Shown piece by piece: positions 5,657-13,016 of a stretch of DNA of 26,357 nucleotides. The stretch spans positions 1 through 26,357 of the IMG/VR virus record IMGVR_UViG_2645727948_000026. One strand, written 5' to 3'. Both the position numbers and the translations under genes were made by a program. The stretch's first letter is position 1. Each line of letters begins with the position of its first letter. The notes under the pieces were generated by a model, which was not told where the DNA came from, made no database searches, and was given only the letters and a program-made list of their open reading frames with translations. This DNA comes from a virus (Duplodnaviria; Heunggongvirae; Uroviricota; Caudoviricetes).

Positions 5657-6046
5657 ATGATTGACGCTCATGACTTCACAAGATGGGTGCGCACACAGGA
5701 CACCCGTCTGGCTCCCGTTCTTCAGGGATTATTTGATCTCTACATCCGTGGTCGTGACAACAGAGCACGCACCACAAAACCGGAGAATGCAGACACCCTT
5801 TATTTCACAGTAGACGACTGCTACCGCGTGGACTTCACACCACACGGGCTGGCGTTGCACTGCCTGACACCACACGGAGAATCACTGCTGGCGTATTACG
5901 ACTCCCCGACCTCCGTATTTGCGGCAATGCTGGCGCATCGCACTGCTGGCGGGTGTGCCTCGCTGAGTGAATACACCGCTGAATTTAACCGCCTTTCTGC
6001 CCTCTTCTCGCAGGAGTGGCAGCGCGTGACGGGATACCAGCCATGA
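5657..6046 (+). CDS. Early-operon hypothetical protein (129 aa)
   Basis: ORF track; its stop overlaps the likely gpA start (ATGA). Confidence 0.55.
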   Translation: MIDAHDFTRWVRTQDTRLAPVLQGLFDLYIRGRDNRARTTKPENADTLYFTVDDCYRVDFTPHGLALHCLTPHGESLLAYYDSPTSVFAAMLAHRTAGGCASLSEYTAEFNRLSALFSQEWQRVTGYQP

Positions 6047-8883
6047 ATGAGTTTGCATGGAGCTGGAATGAACCACGGCCAGCCATTGATCCGGCCAGAT
6101 TTACGGAGCACAGGCAGGAAACTGAAACCGACCTGCAACGCGCCATCCGTTACTACCTTGAGGCAGACAAAAAGGCTCTGGAAGAACAGGAAGCGAAGGA
6201 GGAAGCCTTTTTCGCACAATCCACCGTGGGTAAAAAACTCATGGCATCCCTTGAGGAAGCCGGACAGCGTGAAAAGCTGGCACAAAGCATCATCAGCAAG
6301 CGTCAGGCAACAGAACAAGACCCGGTGGCCCGTGCTTTTGCCACACTGAAGGTGCTTCCCGTTTATCTGCGTAAACCTCTGAGCCGCCACCTCTCTTTCC
6401 TGCGCAAAAAACAGGAAGCCGATCGCCAGAAAGGCAAAAAGAGCTGGCAGGCTGAACGCTACGCGCGCGGAACCCTGCGCAAAATATTCGAACGCCTGGA
6501 CCGCACCGACCACCGCTGGCTGACACCGGGTTATCGCTCCCTTGCCGGACGCGAACGCCTGGATGATTTGCTTTACCTGCCGCAGCTCAACAAGCACCAG
6601 ATACAGACGCTGGCCACCATGACGGCGGCGATGTTCAGCAGCACCTTCGAAAAACTCTGCGATGGCTTTGGCGCGACCGATGGTGAGCTGACCATGGATG
6701 TAACGCTGAAGGCGTATCAGATGCTGGCCCGCATGGCGTTACACCTGCACGCCATGCCTCCACATTATGACGCACTGACAACAGACAAAGACCGGAGGAA
6801 CGAACCGGACACGGAGCTGCTGCCGGGCGCAACCCTTCGCCTGACCTGTGCGGAATGGTGGAAACGCAAACTGTGGCTGTTACGTTGCGAGTGGCGGGAA
6901 GAACAACTCCGCGCCGCCTGTCTGGTTTCCAGAAAAACATCACCCTATCTGAGCCAGGACGCGTTAAGCGAGTTTCGCGCACAGCGCGAGAAAACACGCG
7001 ATTTCCTGAAAAGTTTCATGCTGGAAAATGAAGACGGGTTCACGATTGATCTCGAGACGGTGTATTACGCGGGAGTAAGTAACCCGGTTCACCGTAAGGC
7101 AGAAATGATGGCCACCATGAAGGGGCTGGAACTTCTGGCCGAAGCCCGTGGCGACAGAGCGGTGTTTCTGACTGTCACCTGCCCGTCAAAATACCACGCA
7201 ACAACGGAGAACGGTCATCCGAATCCCAAATGGAACGGGGCCACAATGCGCGACTCCAGCGATTACCTGGTTAACACGTTTTTTGCGGCGGTCCGCAAAA
7301 AACTGAACCGCGACGGCCTGCGCTGGTATGGCATCCGCACGGTGGAGCCTCACCATGACGGCACTGTGCACTGGCATATGATGGTCTTTGCACATCCGGA
7401 CGAGATTGAAACCATCGTGTCCCACGTCTGCGATATTGCCATTCAGGAAGACCGCCACGAGCTGGGCGATGACATAACTCCGCGTTTTAAGGCGGAGTAC
7501 GTCGACGGCTCAAAAGGCACGCCAACCAGCTACATCGCCACCTACATCGGAAAGAACCTGGACAGCCGCGCCGTGGATGGCATCGACCCGAAAACGGGCA
7601 AGCCACGCGTTGACCACGAAACAGGTAAATCAATGGCCGAGAGCGTGGAGCGCGCCATCGGCTGGGCGCGCCTTCACCGGGTCCGTCAGTTCCAGTTCTT
7701 TGGCATCCCCTCCCGTCAGGTGTGGCGTGAACTGCGCCGCCTTGCCAGCCAGATGGCACGCAATCCGGAAGGCCCGCAACGGCTGAAGGATGACGCAATG
7801 GACGCGGTACTCGCTGCCGCTGATGCCGGATGTTTTGCCACCTACATTGAGAAACAGGGTGGCGTACTTGTTCCACGCAAAGACTACCTGATTCGCACCG
7901 CCTACGACCTCGCAGATGAGCTGAACGATTACGGTGAACAGAGCGTACAGATTTACGGGATCTGGTCGCCGCTCATTGGGGAGTCTTCCCGCGTATGCAC
8001 GCATCCGGATAACTGGAAGCTGGTAAGACGCAAACCGGAAGCGGAAGACAGCGCCCGCGAAAATGGTTTTGACCTTCAGGGCGGCCCTGCCGCCCCTTGG
8101 ACTCGTGGCAATAACTGTCCCCGTGTACAGGAAACAGGCAACAACGGGACAGAACAGCCGGAAGAACGGCCAGCACCGTGGCCGCAGCTTCCTGACGGCG
8201 TTGAAGTAAATGAATGGATGCGCTCACTGAAACGGCACGAACGCCGGGCGCTGATGCGTTCGCTTCGTGACAAACAGGCAAAAAACAGCAGCGATGAAAT
8301 GCAGAACTGGACACAGAGCCGCAAACAGCAGCGGCCTTTGCCTGATAACCACGAGTTACTCGCTAAAGAATGGCGGGAGTCTGCTGAATCTCTCGGCCTG
8401 CATATCGGTGAACAACAGATGCAGCACCTGTTACGGGGCGGCAGTCTGTACGTTGACGGCAGCATCATTGCACCGCAGGGATTTGAAATTGTACGCAAAC
8501 CGGATACCCGCCCGGACAGCCGAATCACGCAGCTCTGGCAGCGTCTGAGCCGTAATCATGGCGTAAGCAGCACGGAGATCCGCCATAACCCGGTCGCCAG
8601 CTATCTGGCACAGCTGGGGGCATCAGACCCTGAAGCCGCCGCACGCCTGGCATCCACACTTCAGCAGGACCAGAACACCATGAAAACACCCGTTACCGTG
8701 CTTTCTGACATGCTGCGCGCCATCCGCGACGCAGAGCACGCACAGAGAATCAGTGAAACCACTGAACGCGCCAGCCGCAAAGCAGACCTGCTGCGGGGTG
8801 GCCTGACCAGTGGAAACAAAAAACAGACAGAAACGGGACTCACGAATCCCGTAAATGAGCAAAAAACGCGCAGCGATATATGA
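6043..8883 (+). CDS. A: Rolling-circle replication initiator endonuclease, P2 gpA-like (about 946 aa)
   Basis: ORF track 6016..8883. HUH motif (TVHWHMMVF) and paired catalytic tyrosines (SYIATYIGKN). Start at ATG 6043 preferred because it couples to the upstream stop; 6016 is also possible. C-terminus is longer than P2 gpA as I recall it (761 aa). Confidence 0.85.
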   Translation: MNEFAWSWNEPRPAIDPARFTEHRQETETDLQRAIRYYLEADKKALEEQEAKEEAFFAQSTVGKKLMASLEEAGQREKLAQSIISKRQATEQDPVARAFATLKVLPVYLRKPLSRHLSFLRKKQEADRQKGKKSWQAERYARGTLRKIFERLDRTDHRWLTPGYRSLAGRERLDDLLYLPQLNKHQIQTLATMTAAMFSSTFEKLCDGFGATDGELTMDVTLKAYQMLARMALHLHAMPPHYDALTTDKDRRNEPDTELLPGATLRLTCAEWWKRKLWLLRCEWREEQLRAACLVSRKTSPYLSQDALSEFRAQREKTRDFLKSFMLENEDGFTIDLETVYYAGVSNPVHRKAEMMATMKGLELLAEARGDRAVFLTVTCPSKYHATTENGHPNPKWNGATMRDSSDYLVNTFFAAVRKKLNRDGLRWYGIRTVEPHHDGTVHWHMMVFAHPDEIETIVSHVCDIAIQEDRHELGDDITPRFKAEYVDGSKGTPTSYIATYIGKNLDSRAVDGIDPKTGKPRVDHETGKSMAESVERAIGWARLHRVRQFQFFGIPSRQVWRELRRLASQMARNPEGPQRLKDDAMDAVLAAADAGCFATYIEKQGGVLVPRKDYLIRTAYDLADELNDYGEQSVQIYGIWSPLIGESSRVCTHPDNWKLVRRKPEAEDSARENGFDLQGGPAAPWTRGNNCPRVQETGNNGTEQPEERPAPWPQLPDGVEVNEWMRSLKRHERRALMRSLRDKQAKNSSDEMQNWTQSRKQQRPLPDNHELLAKEWRESAESLGLHIGEQQMQHLLRGGSLYVDGSIIAPQGFEIVRKPDTRPDSRITQLWQRLSRNHGVSSTEIRHNPVASYLAQLGASDPEAAARLASTLQQDQNTMKTPVTVLSDMLRAIRDAEHAQRISETTERASRKADLLRGGLTSGNKKQTETGLTNPVNEQKTRSDI

Positions 8884-8959: not shown

Positions 8960-9919
8960 ATGAAAATTTACATCGACGACGGCTCCACCAACATCAAGCT
9001 GGCATGGACTGAGAACGGCGAACGCCGCAACGCCATCAGCCCGAACAGCTTCAAGTCGGAATGGTCTGCGCCGTTCGGTGGCTCGCAGCCTGCTAACTAC
9101 ATGCTTGATGGCGTGCGCTATGGTTTTGATCCGGTCAGCGATCGCTTTGTCCAGACGACCGACACGCAATACCAGTACAGCGATGTGAATGTCATTGCCA
9201 TTCATCACGCGCTGGTCAAATCAGACATCACGCCACAGGAAGTGGATGTGGTTGTTACCCTGCCACTGAGCGAATATTTCGACACAAACGCACAGCCGGA
9301 CATGGCCAACATCAACCGCAAAAAAGCGAACGTCATGCGCCCGGTGGAGTACCAGAACGGCGAAGCATTCACTATCCGTAACGTACGGGTTATGCCTGAA
9401 TCCATTCCGGCTGGCTTTAAAGCACTGGCTGACATGAGTCCGTTTGAATCCCTGCTGATTGTGGATTTGGGCGGAACCACGCTGGATGTGGCAAAGGTTC
9501 AGGGGCAACTGGCAGGTATCAGCCAGGTGTTTTGCGATCCACACGTAGGCGTTTCTCTTATGGCCGATGCCGTACTGTCGGTGATGGCCACTAACGGTAT
9601 GCGCACCAGTCACCACATCGCCAATACCATTATCGAACATCGCCATAATGAAGCCTGGCTGCGCCAGCACATCCACAATGACGCGCATTACGCCAGCCTG
9701 ATGGCGGTTATTCGTGAAAAGGAAGAAACACTGAAACAACGCGTGATCCGCGCGCTGGCGGTTTTTTCGGGTTACGGGCGGGTGATGGTTGTCGGTGGCG
9801 GGGCGGAGATTGTGGCACCCGCTATCCGCGAAGCCTGCGGAGTTAATGCGACTTTCATCGCGGACGGGGTGCCACAGTTTGCTCTGGTTAATGGGCTGTA
9901 CGCAATGGACAAGGAGTAA
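8960..9919 (+). CDS. parM: Actin-like ATPase, ParM/StbA family
   Basis: ORF track. N-terminus MKIYIDDGSTNIKLAW and blocks VMPESIPAG, LLIVDLGGTTLDV, VMVVGGGAE match my recollection of plasmid R1 ParM and the actin-fold phosphate/adenosine motifs. Confidence 0.7.
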   Translation: MKIYIDDGSTNIKLAWTENGERRNAISPNSFKSEWSAPFGGSQPANYMLDGVRYGFDPVSDRFVQTTDTQYQYSDVNVIAIHHALVKSDITPQEVDVVVTLPLSEYFDTNAQPDMANINRKKANVMRPVEYQNGEAFTIRNVRVMPESIPAGFKALADMSPFESLLIVDLGGTTLDVAKVQGQLAGISQVFCDPHVGVSLMADAVLSVMATNGMRTSHHIANTIIEHRHNEAWLRQHIHNDAHYASLMAVIREKEETLKQRVIRALAVFSGYGRVMVVGGGAEIVAPAIREACGVNATFIADGVPQFALVNGLYAMDKE

Positions 9920-9923
9920 ACCA

Positions 9924-10235
9924 ATGACGACACCAACCAGACGGATAAGTTTCTATCTGAAGCCCGCCGCCGTCAAGAACGAAGGAGAAGCATGCGCCTG
10001 GCTGGACAGCCTTACACCAGAAGCCCGCAAAAGCGGCCAACGCGTGGCTTTTCTGGCCGGGCTGGCACTTCTGAAGACGAATCCGGCAGAGGCTTACCGA
10101 CTGGCCGCATGGGCTGATGATGAGATGTTACCTGTGACACAAATCAGCTCAAAAAAGTTTGAAGCACAGTCTGCACCAGTGGCTAAGATAACCAGCCAGA
10201 TGGCTGGGAATATCCGGGCGTTATTTCCTGAGTAA
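9924..10235 (+). CDS. parR: ParR-like small DNA-binding adaptor (103 aa)
   Basis: ORF track 9789..10235 trimmed to ATG 9924 (GGAG RBS, 4 nt after the parM stop). N-terminus RRISFYLKP...LDSL...AFLAGLAL resembles R1 ParR as recalled. Confidence 0.55.
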   Translation: MTTPTRRISFYLKPAAVKNEGEACAWLDSLTPEARKSGQRVAFLAGLALLKTNPAEAYRLAAWADDEMLPVTQISSKKFEAQSAPVAKITSQMAGNIRALFPE

Positions 10236-10363
10236 AAGCATCTGCGCGAAAAATGCTCACGTTTATAGAGACAGTATCATTCCATTTGGCACACTTACTT
10301 CAATAATCGATCTGTTAAACAAATAGATTGTCTATTATCTATCGATTAAAACGATCAATTATC

Positions 10364-10391
10364 TTGACAGTAATGTGCCTTTTTGTAAGAT
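10364..10391 (+). promoter_or_regulatory. Sigma70-type promoter (rightward)
   Basis: TTGACA (10364-10369), 16-bp spacer, TAAGAT (10386-10391); AT-rich upstream region with CGAT/TATC motifs. Confidence 0.5.
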
Positions 10392-10441
10392 CGTTCGCAT
10401 TGTGAGCGACAAGATAATTGCGCGGCATTGTCCATGCAAAA

Positions 10442-10469
10442 CGCCCCAATAGCAGCAACTATTGGGGCG
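10442..10469 (-). terminator. Hairpin acting as a leftward terminator (candidate antisense RNA 3' end)
   Basis: Perfect 11-bp stem CGCCCCAATAG / CTATTGGGGCG with a 6-nt loop; only the minus-strand reading is followed by a U-run (plus AAAA at 10438-10441). Confidence 0.45.
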
Positions 10470-10497
10470 TAAAACTCGGTCGGGCTCACTTAACCTG

Positions 10498-10582
10498 ATA
10501 TGCGTGCCTTCCGAAGTAAATCAAAATGTGCGTCGTATATTTTATTGCTTACACGCACCTCTGTAAAGGCACGCATATTTTT
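10498..10582 (+). terminator. Long hairpin plus T-run (terminator or attenuator) before the 89-aa ORF
   Basis: 13-bp arms ATATGCGTGCCTT (10498-10510) / AAGGCACGCATAT (10566-10578) followed by TTTT; an inner GTGCGT/ACGCAC stem lies in the loop. Confidence 0.4.
10539..10567 (-). promoter_or_regulatory. Sigma70-type promoter (leftward), convergent with the 10364 promoter
   Basis: On the minus strand: TTTACA (plus 10562-10567), 17-bp spacer, TAAAAT (plus 10539-10544). Predicts a transcript of about 95 nt ending at the 10442-10469 hairpin. Confidence 0.45.
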
Positions 10583-10599
10583 CCTATGAGGTAAATAAA

Positions 10600-10869
10600 G
10601 TGCGGGCTAAAACAGGTATTTGCAAGAACCCTCATCGTTATAATCCAACATTTCTGTCTCTCCCTGAATATCAAGGACAAGAAGGTCGGCACAAATGCGC
10701 TGCCTGTGCTTTTGAGCTAGGCATAAAAGATGCGCTTGAAGGACGCGCTATGGCTCAGAATGATTTAGTTTTAGCTAACATTCCGTTTAGCCAGGCTGGA
10801 ACTGTAAGGCACAGAGATGCCTATGAAGCATATGTTCGTGGTTGGCGATTAATAAACAGCAACAATTGA
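10600..10869 (+). CDS. Small Cys-containing protein (89 aa), function unknown
   Basis: ORF track; GTG start with GAGGT RBS. CAACAF motif with a single CxxC. Followed by a clean intrinsic terminator. Confidence 0.4.
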   Translation: MRAKTGICKNPHRYNPTFLSLPEYQGQEGRHKCAACAFELGIKDALEGRAMAQNDLVLANIPFSQAGTVRHRDAYEAYVRGWRLINSNN

Positions 10870-10877
10870 TACTTTTG

Positions 10878-10903
10878 AAGCGCCGATAAGGCGCTTTTTT
10901 TGT
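10878..10903 (+). terminator. Rho-independent terminator
   Basis: AAGCGCC-GATAA-GGCGCTT stem-loop followed by a T8 run. Confidence 0.7.
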
Positions 10904-10904
10904 T

Positions 10905-11046
10905 TGCACGATAGTGCACAAGTTTGCACAATTTTTTTGAACGACTTTTTGTACTTCCGGCCCGCGTGGTGGCTGGATCCGTCAAGGATCCGTACGTGCA
11001 CAAAAAAACGCGTTTTTTCTGCGCGCAGGTGACGGGGGAACAGCCC
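10905..11046. other. Probable cos / packaging region with phased repeats
   Basis: TGCAC at 10905, 10915, 10925 (10-bp phasing) and 10997; two CGGATCCG palindromes (10975-10992); A6-CGCG-T6 palindrome (11003-11018); G-rich 19-mer GGTGACGGGGGAACAGCCC (11028-11046) resembling the P2/186 cohesive end as I recall it. Placement next to Q fits P2. Confidence 0.3.
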
Positions 11047-11302
11047 GCGTTTCAGGGGGTAAATAGCATTCCCTGAACGATGTCGCAGAGACACAACAGA
11101 ATGGCCATATTTCTCACGCTGAGCATGAAAAAGGCGTGAGGGCTTTTGATTTGATGGGGTGAAAGGTAAGGCCGTCAAAATCGCACTGAGGCAGCGAGAA
11201 CATACAGTCAACGCGGTGGAATTGCGTAAGAGTCTGACCGTCGATGGTGGCGATAAACTGGAAGGCGTCGTGAAATTATCTGATTGATACAGGAGCTGGA
11301 GA

Positions 11303-11331
11303 GCCGGGGCATAAATTTTTTATGCCCCGGC
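11303..11331. repeat. 29-bp perfect palindrome
   Basis: GCCGGGGCATAAA-TTT-TTTATGCCCCGGC, in the non-coding stretch upstream of the 174-aa ORF. Confidence 0.6.
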
Positions 11332-11430
11332 GAAGCAGCAGACAAGCGAAGCGCGTCAGCGATACGGCACCTTGCCGACCATACTTCATAAGTGCAAAAT
11401 ACGAGCAAAGAAATCAATGGAGGCTGTCTT

Positions 11431-11955
11431 ATGGTCATTAATTACAAGCAGTTAAGAGAAAAACGGGAGCAGGTAAAGGAGAGCTTTCGCCGCAATGAAG
11501 ATCTGACCCCGCTTGTACGCCTTGCCCAGGGCATTGTTGATGCTTATGAAATCTCGCTGGAGCTGCCATCACAGACCTGGACAGATAGCGACGGTAATCG
11601 CCAGCATTACGTTTCATGCGGACTGGAAGCAGCCGAAGGATTTCGCAGAATGCCTTTATCCCAGATCCCTGCCGCTACCCCCAAAGCACGGGGCAGCAAT
11701 GATGAGCGAAAACTGACTTTTAGTATTGAAACGGTGGTTGACGACACACCTGGCGAAGTCGCGTTCGTGCACACGCCTGTTTCGATCGCAATGTATAACG
11801 ATGAAATACAGGTTCGCGTTAATAATAATATCGTGCCACTTAAAGAAGGTAATTCACCCTACACCACCGTTTGTGAAGCCATTCAATATTACGTTCTCTC
11901 TGAAATTGATAATCTCAAGCCTGACGGCACCCAGAAAATGGTTCAACTCTGGTAA
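11431..11955 (+). CDS. Hypothetical protein (174 aa) convergent with the portal gene
   Basis: ORF track 11392..11955 trimmed to ATG 11431 (GGAGG 7 nt upstream). No recognisable motif. Confidence 0.55.
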   Translation: MVINYKQLREKREQVKESFRRNEDLTPLVRLAQGIVDAYEISLELPSQTWTDSDGNRQHYVSCGLEAAEGFRRMPLSQIPAATPKARGSNDERKLTFSIETVVDDTPGEVAFVHTPVSIAMYNDEIQVRVNNNIVPLKEGNSPYTTVCEAIQYYVLSEIDNLKPDGTQKMVQLW

Positions 11956-11960
11956 AAAGG

Positions 11961-11986
11961 ACAGCCCCATCACGGGGCTGTTTTTT
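11961..11986. terminator. Bidirectional terminator shared by the 174-aa ORF and Q
   Basis: CAGCCCC-ATCAC-GGGGCTG hairpin with T6 downstream on plus and a T-run on minus (plus AAAAA at 11953-11957). Confidence 0.6.
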
Positions 11987-13016
11987 CATCAAGAAGAGCA
12001 TAAGAGTTAAAACGGATCACCTCTTCGCCAAGCCAGTCATTGATGTGCTTCATAGCCTCCATGACGGGCATCAGCTCGTTAATTGCGTAAACCCGCGCTG
12101 CCTTCTCCACATCGCCAAACGCACTTTTTTCGCCCGGCATCGCCCCCATCAGTTGCGGCGGAACGCGGTGCGCAGCCAGCACATCATCACGGGATGCCGC
12201 CTTAACATTCATGAATTCATCTTTTGCGGTGATCTGCTGGAACGGCAAAATTTGCACCCCCTCTTTGCCCCCGTTGGGCGCATGAATGAGCACGTTTTTA
12301 AACGCACCACCACCACGTGCCCCCTGTAGCGTTTCTTTCAGGGAGTCCATGCTTTCGCGGTTTACCTGCGCTGCACCGATGTAGATGATGCACCCGGCGT
12401 GGGATCCGTTGTCGTAGTACAGTTTTCTGAACATGTCCGCCGAATGAGAAAGGCTGGCCGAGAGTAATGCGCCAAGATATTCCGGCATGCCGTAGATTTC
12501 CTGGTTAATATCCGGATTCATCAGGTGGCACACTTTGCCAGGACGAAACTGAAACGCGTCCTTGCCATCCTGCACATACCACCATGATTCAAGATCGCTT
12601 CCGCGTCGCATGTATTTCGCCAGGGCGTGCCGTAATTTAAGCGGTTCGCCGAGCATATTGCTTCGAAGCTCAAGGAATGCGTTACCGAACACAAACCAGT
12701 CCAGCGCCAGCGCCGAGAAATCCTGCCGGGAAAGCAGCGGGTGCGGGATGTAGCAACCGAGTAATACATTGCGCTTAAAGTAAAGCGCAGACTGATGCCA
12801 GGACGTTTGCCGGGCTGCTCTTGCCAGACCGTACCAGTCCACCGGGGTTTCATACCACCGCCCGTTATCAGCACAGTACATATTGTCCAGCAGGTCATGC
12901 CCGGTCAGGCGATAAGGACCATCAAATGTGAATGCACTGAGCGATGATTCTTTCCTGAGCGCATCAGCGAGATCAATGCGTGAACTCATGCGCACTTTTT
13001 TATTTTTTCTGCTCAT
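11970..13016 (-). CDS. Q: Portal protein, P2 gpQ-like
   Basis: ORF track (348 aa); size and position match P2 Q; start overlaps the P stop. Confidence 0.85.
   Translation of the reverse strand: MSRKNKKVRMSSRIDLADALRKESSLSAFTFDGPYRLTGHDLLDNMYCADNGRWYETPVDWYGLARAARQTSWHQSALYFKRNVLLGCYIPHPLLSRQDFSALALDWFVFGNAFLELRSNMLGEPLKLRHALAKYMRRGSDLESWWYVQDGKDAFQFRPGKVCHLMNPDINQEIYGMPEYLGALLSASLSHSADMFRKLYYDNGSHAGCIIYIGAAQVNRESMDSLKETLQGARGGGAFKNVLIHAPNGGKEGVQILPFQQITAKDEFMNVKAASRDDVLAAHRVPPQLMGAMPGEKSAFGDVEKAARVYAINELMPVMEAMKHINDWLGEEVIRFNSYALLDEKTAP

Follow-up and report, generated by a model that had tools for sequence, protein, structure and literature searches.

The window analysed here, i.e. the whole stretch of 26,357 nucleotides at positions 1 to 26,357 of the IMG/VR record IMGVR_UViG_2645727948_000026, is a P2/186-like prophage of Escherichia coli (Xuanwuvirus, P88-like), and its closest records are the Escherichia phages 520873 and 503458. 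Between the replication gene A (gpA) and the portal gene Q (gpQ), beside a ParMR partition module, it contains an open reading frame (ORF) of 89 codons. This gene, its product and its control region are the subject of this study. The 89-residue protein and the family to which it belongs are called T in the following. The features of the interval are:

6016-8883: replication gene A (gpA), assigned with Pfam
8960-9919 and 9924-10235: ParM and ParR partition pair
10236-10877: cargo cassette of 642 bp, with promoter/operator block, leader, antisense promoter and the 89-residue gene; delimited by the homology breaks against P88 and PhiR44_2
10588-10592, plus strand: ribosome-binding site GAGGT, 7 nucleotides 5' of the GTG start codon, read from the sequence
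10600-10869, plus strand: gene for the 89-residue protein T, established by ORF call, PHROG match, homologue searches, alignments, structure model, repeat comparison and substitution rates
10877-10897, plus strand: intrinsic terminator common to the phage backbone, from the hairpin search and the alignment with P88 and PhiR44_2
11970-13016, minus strand: portal gene Q (gpQ), assigned with Pfam

In P2, the genes old and tin are found in the interval between gpA and gpQ, a hotspot close to cos (Rousset et al. 2022, PMC9122126), and about a quarter of the P2-like phages have a partition system here (PMC9122126). The original prediction had placed the gene at the position equivalent to old and tin. 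This proved to be right, as the locus consists of a variable, exactly bounded cassette that is flanked by the gene A region and the portal gene Q. Homology to the phages P88 and PhiR44_2, which do not have the gene, ends at 10235, the stop codon of parR, and picks up again at 10878 (PhiR44_2) or 10890 (P88). Thus, the cargo is a swap-in module of 642 bp, over half of which is non-coding. An identical stretch of 661 bases is present in 166 of 5,426 complete E. coli genomes, every time in the chromosome. In phages, the T gene occupies slots that are typical of cargo expressed in lysogens ("morons"): 3' of cI, in the interval from Q to the lysis genes, or beside GtrAB or ParMR. For example, the T gene of Salmonella phage BIS08P22 is found in the rexAB-equivalent slot, directly 3' of cI and on the same strand. 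Among the ORFs of the window upstream of gpA there is no phage-encoded Dam methylase. In the record of Escherichia phage 503458 (L018) the genes for portal, terminase and ParM are each split into several coding sequences. The broken 89-residue gene of this phage was therefore not taken as decay, because frameshifts are found throughout the record, and the apparent one in this gene is most likely an assembly error.

The GTG at 10600 is the first start codon after the in-frame TAA at 10597-10599, and both the GTG start and the GAGGT are present as had been predicted. The predicted clean terminator exists as well, a hairpin of 8 pairs (5 of them G-C) with a loop of 5 at 10877-10897, followed by TTTTTGTTTG. 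However, it is not the gene's own: homology to the gene-free phages resumes at 10878, and the terminator therefore belongs to the backbone, where it serves any cargo placed in this slot. The original prediction had left the coding status open and had suggested to decide it by conservation and synonymous substitutions. Both show that the 89-codon ORF is a genuine, strongly conserved protein-coding gene. The protein matches phrog_3941, a PHROG family of unknown function, with an E-value of 9.1e-49, and its residues 4-89 align to positions 1-86 of the 86-position profile. An exhaustive HMMER scan gave 173 representatives of the T family, and a profile built from 46 members identified 1,597 clusters of homologues. 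The ratio of non-synonymous to synonymous substitution rates (dN/dS) in the family is 0.04-0.17, and the E. coli copies differ by three synonymous changes and a single non-synonymous one, which is in the non-conserved tail. A spurious ORF can be rejected based on the PHROG match, the homologues, the substitution pattern and the dN/dS. T homologues in the genome scan are spread over the Proteobacteria, Bacteroidota, Spirochaetota, Campylobacterota, Chloroflexota, Actinobacteria, and Firmicutes, and are also encoded on plasmids, including conjugative plasmids and plasmids of Lactobacillaceae. No family corresponding to T was found in Pfam, NCBIfam, or PADLOC (the Pfam score of 13.6 bits is below the cut-off of 25.6), and no description of the family was found in the literature. 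The annotation of the ORF by RefSeq/PGAP is inconsistent: it is WP_001390707.1 in some genomes, while the intact ORF for an identical protein is unannotated in others (L019, L020, E. coli chromosomes).

Two alignments of diverse family members, comprising 46 and 60 sequences, were used to identify conserved residues. C8, H12, R30, Q65, R70, and H71 are invariant in both alignments. C33, C36, Q25, H31, and S64 do not vary in one of them and reach a conservation of at least 90% in the second. The CAACAF motif with a single CxxC, which had been noted before, is present as C33-x2-C36 within HKCAACAFELG. It is however only half of the conserved pattern, as conservation indicates four candidate metal ligands, C8-x3-H12 and C33-x2-C36. 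The CxxC together with C8 and H12 probably forms a zinc site, which would make T a zinc-binding protein. In addition, T contains two Q-x4-R-H motifs, Q25-R30-H31 and Q65-R70-H71. The confident AlphaFold model (predicted local distance difference test score, pLDDT, 88.9; predicted template modelling score, pTM, 0.82) shows a basic, soluble-looking protein with four amphipathic helices at residues 16-20, 34-46, 54-59, and 74-86, a secondary structure that repeats with a period of 40 residues. The profiles of the N- and C-terminal halves match each other with an hhalign probability of 96.8% (E 2e-10), and T is therefore a tandem duplication of a unit of about 40 residues. Each unit consists of a short helix, a loop with Q-x4-R-H, and a long helix; unit 1 has retained the CxxC while unit 2 is devoid of the cysteines.

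Comparison of the T model with the PDB and BFVD by Foldseek only resulted in hits with E > 0.3, so that neither a solved structure nor a predicted viral structure resembles it. Sequence and profile searches against the PDB only found a chance match to a CRIPT-like CxxC (E 0.42). A likeness to the ribosome modulation factor, suggested by an A-Y-x-x-G-Y-x-x-G helix, was not significant (hhalign probability 3%). With respect to helix-turn-helix (HTH) proteins, no HTH family was found for T in Pfam at E <= 0.1, no HTH protein was found in the PDB profile search, and the fold search did not reveal anything like the HTH controller proteins.

Genomic neighbourhood and domain fusions of T

ORFs were called in 80 genome loci of T and the neighbours were clustered. 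The main neighbour is a D12-class adenine methylase, which is encoded in the same gene string in 37 of the 80 loci. These methylases are closest to DpnM (PDB 2DPM; E 2e-92 and 2e-51), followed by E. coli Dam, and the T-associated systems are therefore GATC systems. The nucleases of the strings belong to three unrelated types: the DpnII family, often accompanied by a DpnA-like second methylase; a 425-residue enzyme (PADLOC REase_II PDLC03513; Pfam DUF6996/6997/7226); and a PDDEXK_11 protein of about 160 residues. Within its string, T is encoded at one of the two ends, as first or as last gene. Membership in restriction-modification (R-M) operons is a property of the family; the copy in the window is solo. 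Extended operons of the DpnII type are found at the loci L037, L045, L026, L058, and L109, which contain the D12 methylase, the DpnII nuclease and the DpnA-like methylase, and each of which encodes T or a T fusion with DndB or DUF3883. Most of them add a PD-(D/E)XK-like protein of about 178 residues. These gene sets exceed the classical three-gene DpnII cassette.

The composition is different in hosts that have their own GATC methylase. Dam is a housekeeping enzyme in the Enterobacterales, Vibrionales, Pasteurellales, Alteromonadales and allies, and the loci were split on this basis. A D12 methylase within 4.5 kb of T is present at none of the 22 loci in the Dam-containing gammaproteobacterial orders but at 35 of the 49 loci elsewhere (Fisher p = 4e-9, with kinship not corrected for). 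In the 22 loci T is either solo or heads other defence operons. In these gammaproteobacteria T is encoded directly 5' of Septu PtuA/B, PDC-M18A/B, PDC-S31, and Hp1/Hp2, and at other loci directly 5' of HEPN (DUF3644) or DUF4062 genes, in each case on the same strand and separated from the defence gene by only a few bases. The host pattern fits a requirement of T for GATC methylation in the cell, which would be supplied in cis where the host does not provide it.

T is also found as part of larger proteins. It is fused to the C-terminus of DndB-like proteins in DpnII operons and of one WYL protein, and a tandem of two putative zinc modules makes up the N-terminus of nucleases of the NOV_C/DUF3883 and HNH_2 families. 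The modules of the fusion nucleases have each kept the CxxC, and most have an upstream Cys/His as well. Elsewhere, the same DUF3883 nuclease carries an EVE or McrB-N domain in this N-terminal slot. EVE and McrB-N are known DNA-reader domains. Because the slot is otherwise filled by DNA readers, T occupies the place of a DNA-recognition domain. Four of the five fusion contexts examined are beside a D12 methylase, often together with a PDDEXK_11 or DpnII gene, and the fifth ends at the edge of a contig. Given the cognate methylase next to it, T cannot read methylated GATC in the way DpnI does, and for the same reason we reject the possibility that the T-nuclease fusions are methyl-dependent (type IV) enzymes.

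The control region and a candidate antisense RNA

Upstream of the gene, the cassette contains the following elements:

10300-10393, plus strand: conserved promoter/operator block with GATC at 10309, 10353, and 10389, and two ATCGAT motifs
10356-10420: perfect 11-nucleotide inverted repeat CAATTATCTTG / CAAGATAATTG, operator-like, which brackets the plus-strand promoter
10364-10391, plus strand: predicted sigma-70-like promoter TTGACA-16-TAAGAT, score 10/12, whose -10 overlaps the GATC at 10389-10392
10436-10532, minus strand: predicted antisense RNA of about 95 nucleotides, fully complementary to the mRNA leader, with ends inferred from the positions of promoter and hairpin
10441-10470, minus strand: perfect 12-bp hairpin followed by UUUUG on the minus strand, likely the terminator of the antisense RNA
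10498-10583, plus strand: 13-bp inverted repeat closing a loop of 55 nucleotides, then T5, a possible attenuator and the weakest part of the architecture
10539-10567, minus strand: predicted convergent sigma-70-like promoter TTTACA-17-TAAAAT inside the leader, score 10/12

A scan of viral contigs identified 63 T loci that fall into 16 distinct upstream groups. The window shares its architecture (type B) with the loci L153 and L156, whose proteins are 56-63% identical, and the block at 10300-10393 is better conserved than the protein. Its three GATC sites have the identical spacing of 44 and 36 nucleotides in L153 and L156, and the TA(A/G)GATC at the predicted -10 is kept in both. GATC is depleted in the window as a whole (60 observed against about 101 expected from base composition), and the block is the sole stretch of the 26 kb with at least three GATC per 100 nucleotides. 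Plus-strand promoters equivalent to the predicted one are found in 12 of the 16 diverged cassette groups. Apart from type B, the remaining twelve groups have a different architecture (type A), in which a TAAG..GATC is invariant 10 nucleotides 5' of the plus-strand -35. In addition, the spacer of the minus-strand promoter contains a GATC in ten of these twelve groups, the TGTAAAG of this promoter is invariant in all twelve, and nine have GAGATCTC where the minus-strand RNA begins. Just 3' of the predicted plus-strand promoter, at 10399-10408, the window contains ATTGTGAGCG, which is identical to the left half-site of lacO1. A right half-site to match is absent, and the identity is probably due to chance.

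The leader had been described as heavily structured, and it is: the region 10398-10620 folds with -72.4 kcal/mol (z = -3.95), a value reached by none of 200 shuffled sequences, and it contains two perfect inverted repeats, 10441-10452/10459-10470 and 10498-10510/10566-10578. The second of these could, together with the T5, act as an attenuator. However, the hairpin at 10498-10578 is specific to the cassette of the window: L153 and L156, the nearest diverged relatives, have a gap of 27 nucleotides here, and the large hairpin was down-weighted as key regulator. A search of the window against Rfam only gave a match to the sar RNA, which is far below threshold (22 bits compared to a gathering score of 43, E 0.31) and restricted to the hairpin. 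Tandem repeats of the kind of type III toxin-antitoxin systems (ToxI) were not seen in the leader.

The minus strand offers a better explanation for the structure. In the window, L002, and L031, the -35 of the predicted convergent promoter (TTTACA) is located 30-33 nucleotides 5' of the start codon. L023 also has a promoter-like site on the minus strand, with an equal distance to the conserved Cys codon. As estimated from shuffle rates, the chance of finding such a site within a position window of 17 nucleotides is about 0.01-0.05 per locus. Every cassette group has a hairpin of 9-12 bp at the equivalent place, differing in the sequence of the stem and followed by UUUCC or UUUUG. The predicted antisense RNA folds with -37.9 kcal/mol (z = -3.74), and its overlap with the mRNA hinges on the predicted plus-strand promoter. 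What appeared as a structured leader would thus largely be a gene for a convergent antisense RNA combined with a GATC-laden promoter. The tight regulation that was suspected for the gene is therefore supported and takes a sharper form, a predicted promoter overlapped by GATC and a conserved convergent antisense promoter instead of a simple structured leader. A further candidate, a conserved minus-strand RNA of about 105 nucleotides, is found upstream of the chromosomal T homologues of Citrobacter, Klebsiella, Buttiauxella, and Serratia (positions 5826-5934 on the minus strand of L031, with equivalents in L033, L035, L043, L046, L048, L072, and L082). Its features are a promoter with an extended -10, two hairpins, and a U-run terminator, and 10 of its 30 pairs show compensatory changes. 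A search with this candidate of the chromosomal relative did not result in any match in Rfam.

A possible role of T in reading GATC methylation

Based on the sequence evidence, we suggest that T is a DNA-recognition module that is coupled to GATC methylation and acts as regulator or sensor, a tentative reading to which we assign a probability of roughly 0.4. This supports the original prediction of a small effector or regulator, to which the strong link of the family with GATC R-M systems was not visible. T would read GATC-containing DNA in a methylation-sensitive manner, favouring unmethylated sites, and its function would be that of a detachable subunit for specificity, sensing, or regulation. 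In hosts without Dam, its gene is found next to those of a DpnM-like methylase and a GATC-type nuclease, or T is fused to the nuclease as its N-terminal module. In Dam-containing enterobacteria and their phages it occurs by itself or as the first gene of other defence operons. The solo T of the prophage may be kept low by the GATC-overlapped -10 and by the cis-antisense RNA from the convergent promoter. With a Dam-methylated -10 and the restraint by the antisense RNA, T would build up mainly on un- or hemi-methylated cassette DNA. Under-methylated DNA might then be the target of the accumulated T, which would be an exclusion or defence factor or else a regulator. In a bolder version, which we regard as rather doubtful, T would represent a new class of readers of the GATC methylation state, being pseudo-dimeric, zinc-stabilised, and binding to unmethylated GATC. 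It would provide small nucleases of DpnM-type systems with their targets, fused or as separate protein, and in Dam-containing bacteria it would have been repurposed by prophages and defence islands as a stand-alone sensor for under-methylated (foreign or rapidly replicating) DNA that controls its own Dam-sensitive promoter.

Several observations weigh against this interpretation. The case for DNA binding by T comes solely from its domain position, its net positive charge and the conserved Arg, His, and Gln residues; the fusions to DndB-like and WYL proteins agree with DNA binding but do not prove it, and a fold that resembles nothing known does not give any functional hint. T is found both as first and as last gene of operons, so that no single regulatory role fits neatly. 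The contrast between hosts with and without Dam is confounded by phylogeny and by the spreading of operon types within phyla. An enrichment of GATC upstream of T was not found for the family as a whole (ratio 0.76) and is limited to the clade of enterobacterial phages. Finally, neither the antisense RNA nor the two promoters are more than predictions, whose support is conservation.

Other functions of T have to be considered. Instead of reading DNA, T might dock on the Dam/DpnM-type methylase, either as an adaptor that recruits the nuclease (like Mod for Res in type III systems) or as a modulator of activity (like lambda Ral for EcoKI), in which case the prophage copy would act on the host Dam. 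The methylase is indeed the constant partner while the type of nuclease varies, the missing methylase neighbour in Dam-containing hosts would be accounted for, and surface residues that are invariant across phyla fit a single conserved protein partner. We nevertheless consider the docking unlikely, as T also heads methylase-free operons, at loci for which a host Dam is an assumption. The protein is basic with R/H/Q motifs that are more typical of contacts to nucleic acids, the slot on DUF3883 otherwise holds DNA readers, and the conserved GATC sites of the control region would be left unexplained. Slightly less likely still is that T regulates the transcription of defence operons in general, as a non-HTH counterpart of the controller (C) proteins of R-M systems or of BrxR/CapW with operators unrelated to GATC, of which the prophage copy would be an orphan that autoregulates itself via the inverted repeat at the promoter. 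This would agree with a small protein that is attached to many unrelated defence systems at the ends of their operons, with the fusion to a WYL-domain protein, and with the operator-like repeat around the promoter. However, the operators should differ from system to system while the putative contact residues are invariant across phyla. Furthermore, T is found as tandem N-terminal module of nucleases, and its association is skewed to one methylase family instead of being even over the defence systems.

The cassette might also be a stability module of the type I toxin-antitoxin kind, in which T would be harmful if over-made and the antisense RNA would be the antitoxin: its 5' leader is long and structured and contains a predicted convergent promoter for an antisense RNA, comparable to tisB/istR-1 or zorO/orzO, this architecture is kept in the 16 cassette groups and in chromosomal relatives, and the cassette adjoins a partition module. 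It is improbable that this is its function, because T is not a small hydrophobic peptide and the same protein is part of hundreds of R-M operons that do not contain any antisense gene. The slot 3' of cI in BIS08P22 also suggests expression in lysogens. Lastly, T could be an anti-restriction factor that eases the entry of phages and plasmids into hosts with GATC R-M systems by shielding the unmethylated GATC sites of the phage or by inhibiting DpnII-type nucleases. It is present on conjugative plasmids and phages and linked to GATC systems, and the predicted promoter would be expected to fire on unmethylated incoming DNA. Yet T is encoded within the R-M operons themselves and fused to their nucleases, phages have T at positions expressed in lysogens and not early in the lytic cycle, and the DNA of E. 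coli phages is already Dam-methylated. We regard this as very improbable, the least likely of the explanations given here.

A small accessory protein of R-M and other defence operons that is carried as prophage cargo is familiar. What is unfamiliar in T is its fold, its strong association with GATC methylases, and its regulatory architecture. The C proteins of type II R-M systems (such as C.PvuII and C.AhdI) have about the same size as T (80-100 residues) and are, like T, found in R-M operons and as orphans on mobile elements, so that the timing or tuning of nuclease expression is a plausible common role. However, they are Xre-type HTH dimers, while T does not show any HTH signal in Pfam, has conserved, putative Cys/His metal ligands and a tandem-repeat fold that has no match in the PDB, and is fused to nucleases. 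The N-terminal DNA readers (EVE/PUA-like domains, McrB-N, the winged helix of DpnI) are comparable in that T occupies the same slot on DUF3883 and HNH nucleases. DpnI demonstrates that a small accessory domain can read the methylation state of GATC. In contrast to T, whose nuclease fusions adjoin a DpnM-like methylase, the EVE, McrB-N, and DpnI readers target modified DNA and do not have a cognate methylase, and there is no similarity in sequence or fold. With old and tin of P2 and other cargo of the hotspot, T shares the slot next to cos, the nature as prophage cargo, an own promoter (predicted for T), and the swapping as a cassette. They are not homologous; Old is a large ATPase-nuclease, Tin targets gp32 of the T-even phages, and T has no match in PADLOC.

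The regulatory architecture has a close parallel in the pIN/RNA-OUT region of IS10, where a GATC in the -10 region is likewise combined with a convergent promoter, located in the 5' end or leader, that gives rise to a short antisense RNA (predicted in the cassette). The product of IS10 is kept very low except on hemi- or unmethylated DNA. However, the products of IS10 and tisB/istR-1 are a transposase and a membrane peptide, T is neither, and the elements of the cassette are all predicted, with conservation as their support. Lambda Ral and Rac Lar (RalR) are, like T, small prophage proteins; they are encoded near the immunity region and act on the balance of methylation and restriction. RalR is in addition paired with an antisense RNA. 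Ral and Lar act on type I systems, while T is native to type II GATC operons and does not show any sequence similarity to them.

If the proposed role is correct, the GATC R-M systems (DpnII, MboI), which are among the longest-studied, would have an accessory component with a new fold that has not been recognised so far, and the Dam-containing bacteria and their prophages would possess a dedicated reading of DNA that is not yet methylated, beyond SeqA and MutH. This would provide a candidate route of infection sensing for the solo cargo of the P2 hotspot and for the small genes that head Septu, PDC-M18, and other operons, and the module could be used as a compact, methylation-sensitive DNA-binding unit for building tools. 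Independently of the mechanism, an inconsistently annotated "hypothetical protein" can now be assigned to a family that is large and well defined and has a clear genomic signature.

Other features of the prophage backbone

Some further observations were made in the neighbourhood of the cassette. The gpA ORF encodes 955 residues, of which the Pfam GPA domain covers only residues 194-518, and the C-terminal about 435 residues do not have an assigned domain. Only 76 nucleotides separate the gpA stop codon from parM, and obvious centromere iterons were not seen in the ParM/ParR module (8960-10235). One further ORF is located between the cassette and gpQ:

11392-11955: backbone ORF with no assigned function

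It encodes 187 residues and belongs to phrog_5091, with no match in Pfam, NCBIfam, or PADLOC. It is part of the phage backbone and also present in relatives that do not have the cassette. The cos-proximal region at 10970-11335 contains two GGATCC sites (10975 and 10986), which are 11 nucleotides apart, and a perfect inverted repeat of 13 nucleotides is present at 11303-11315/11319-11331, also proximal to cos.

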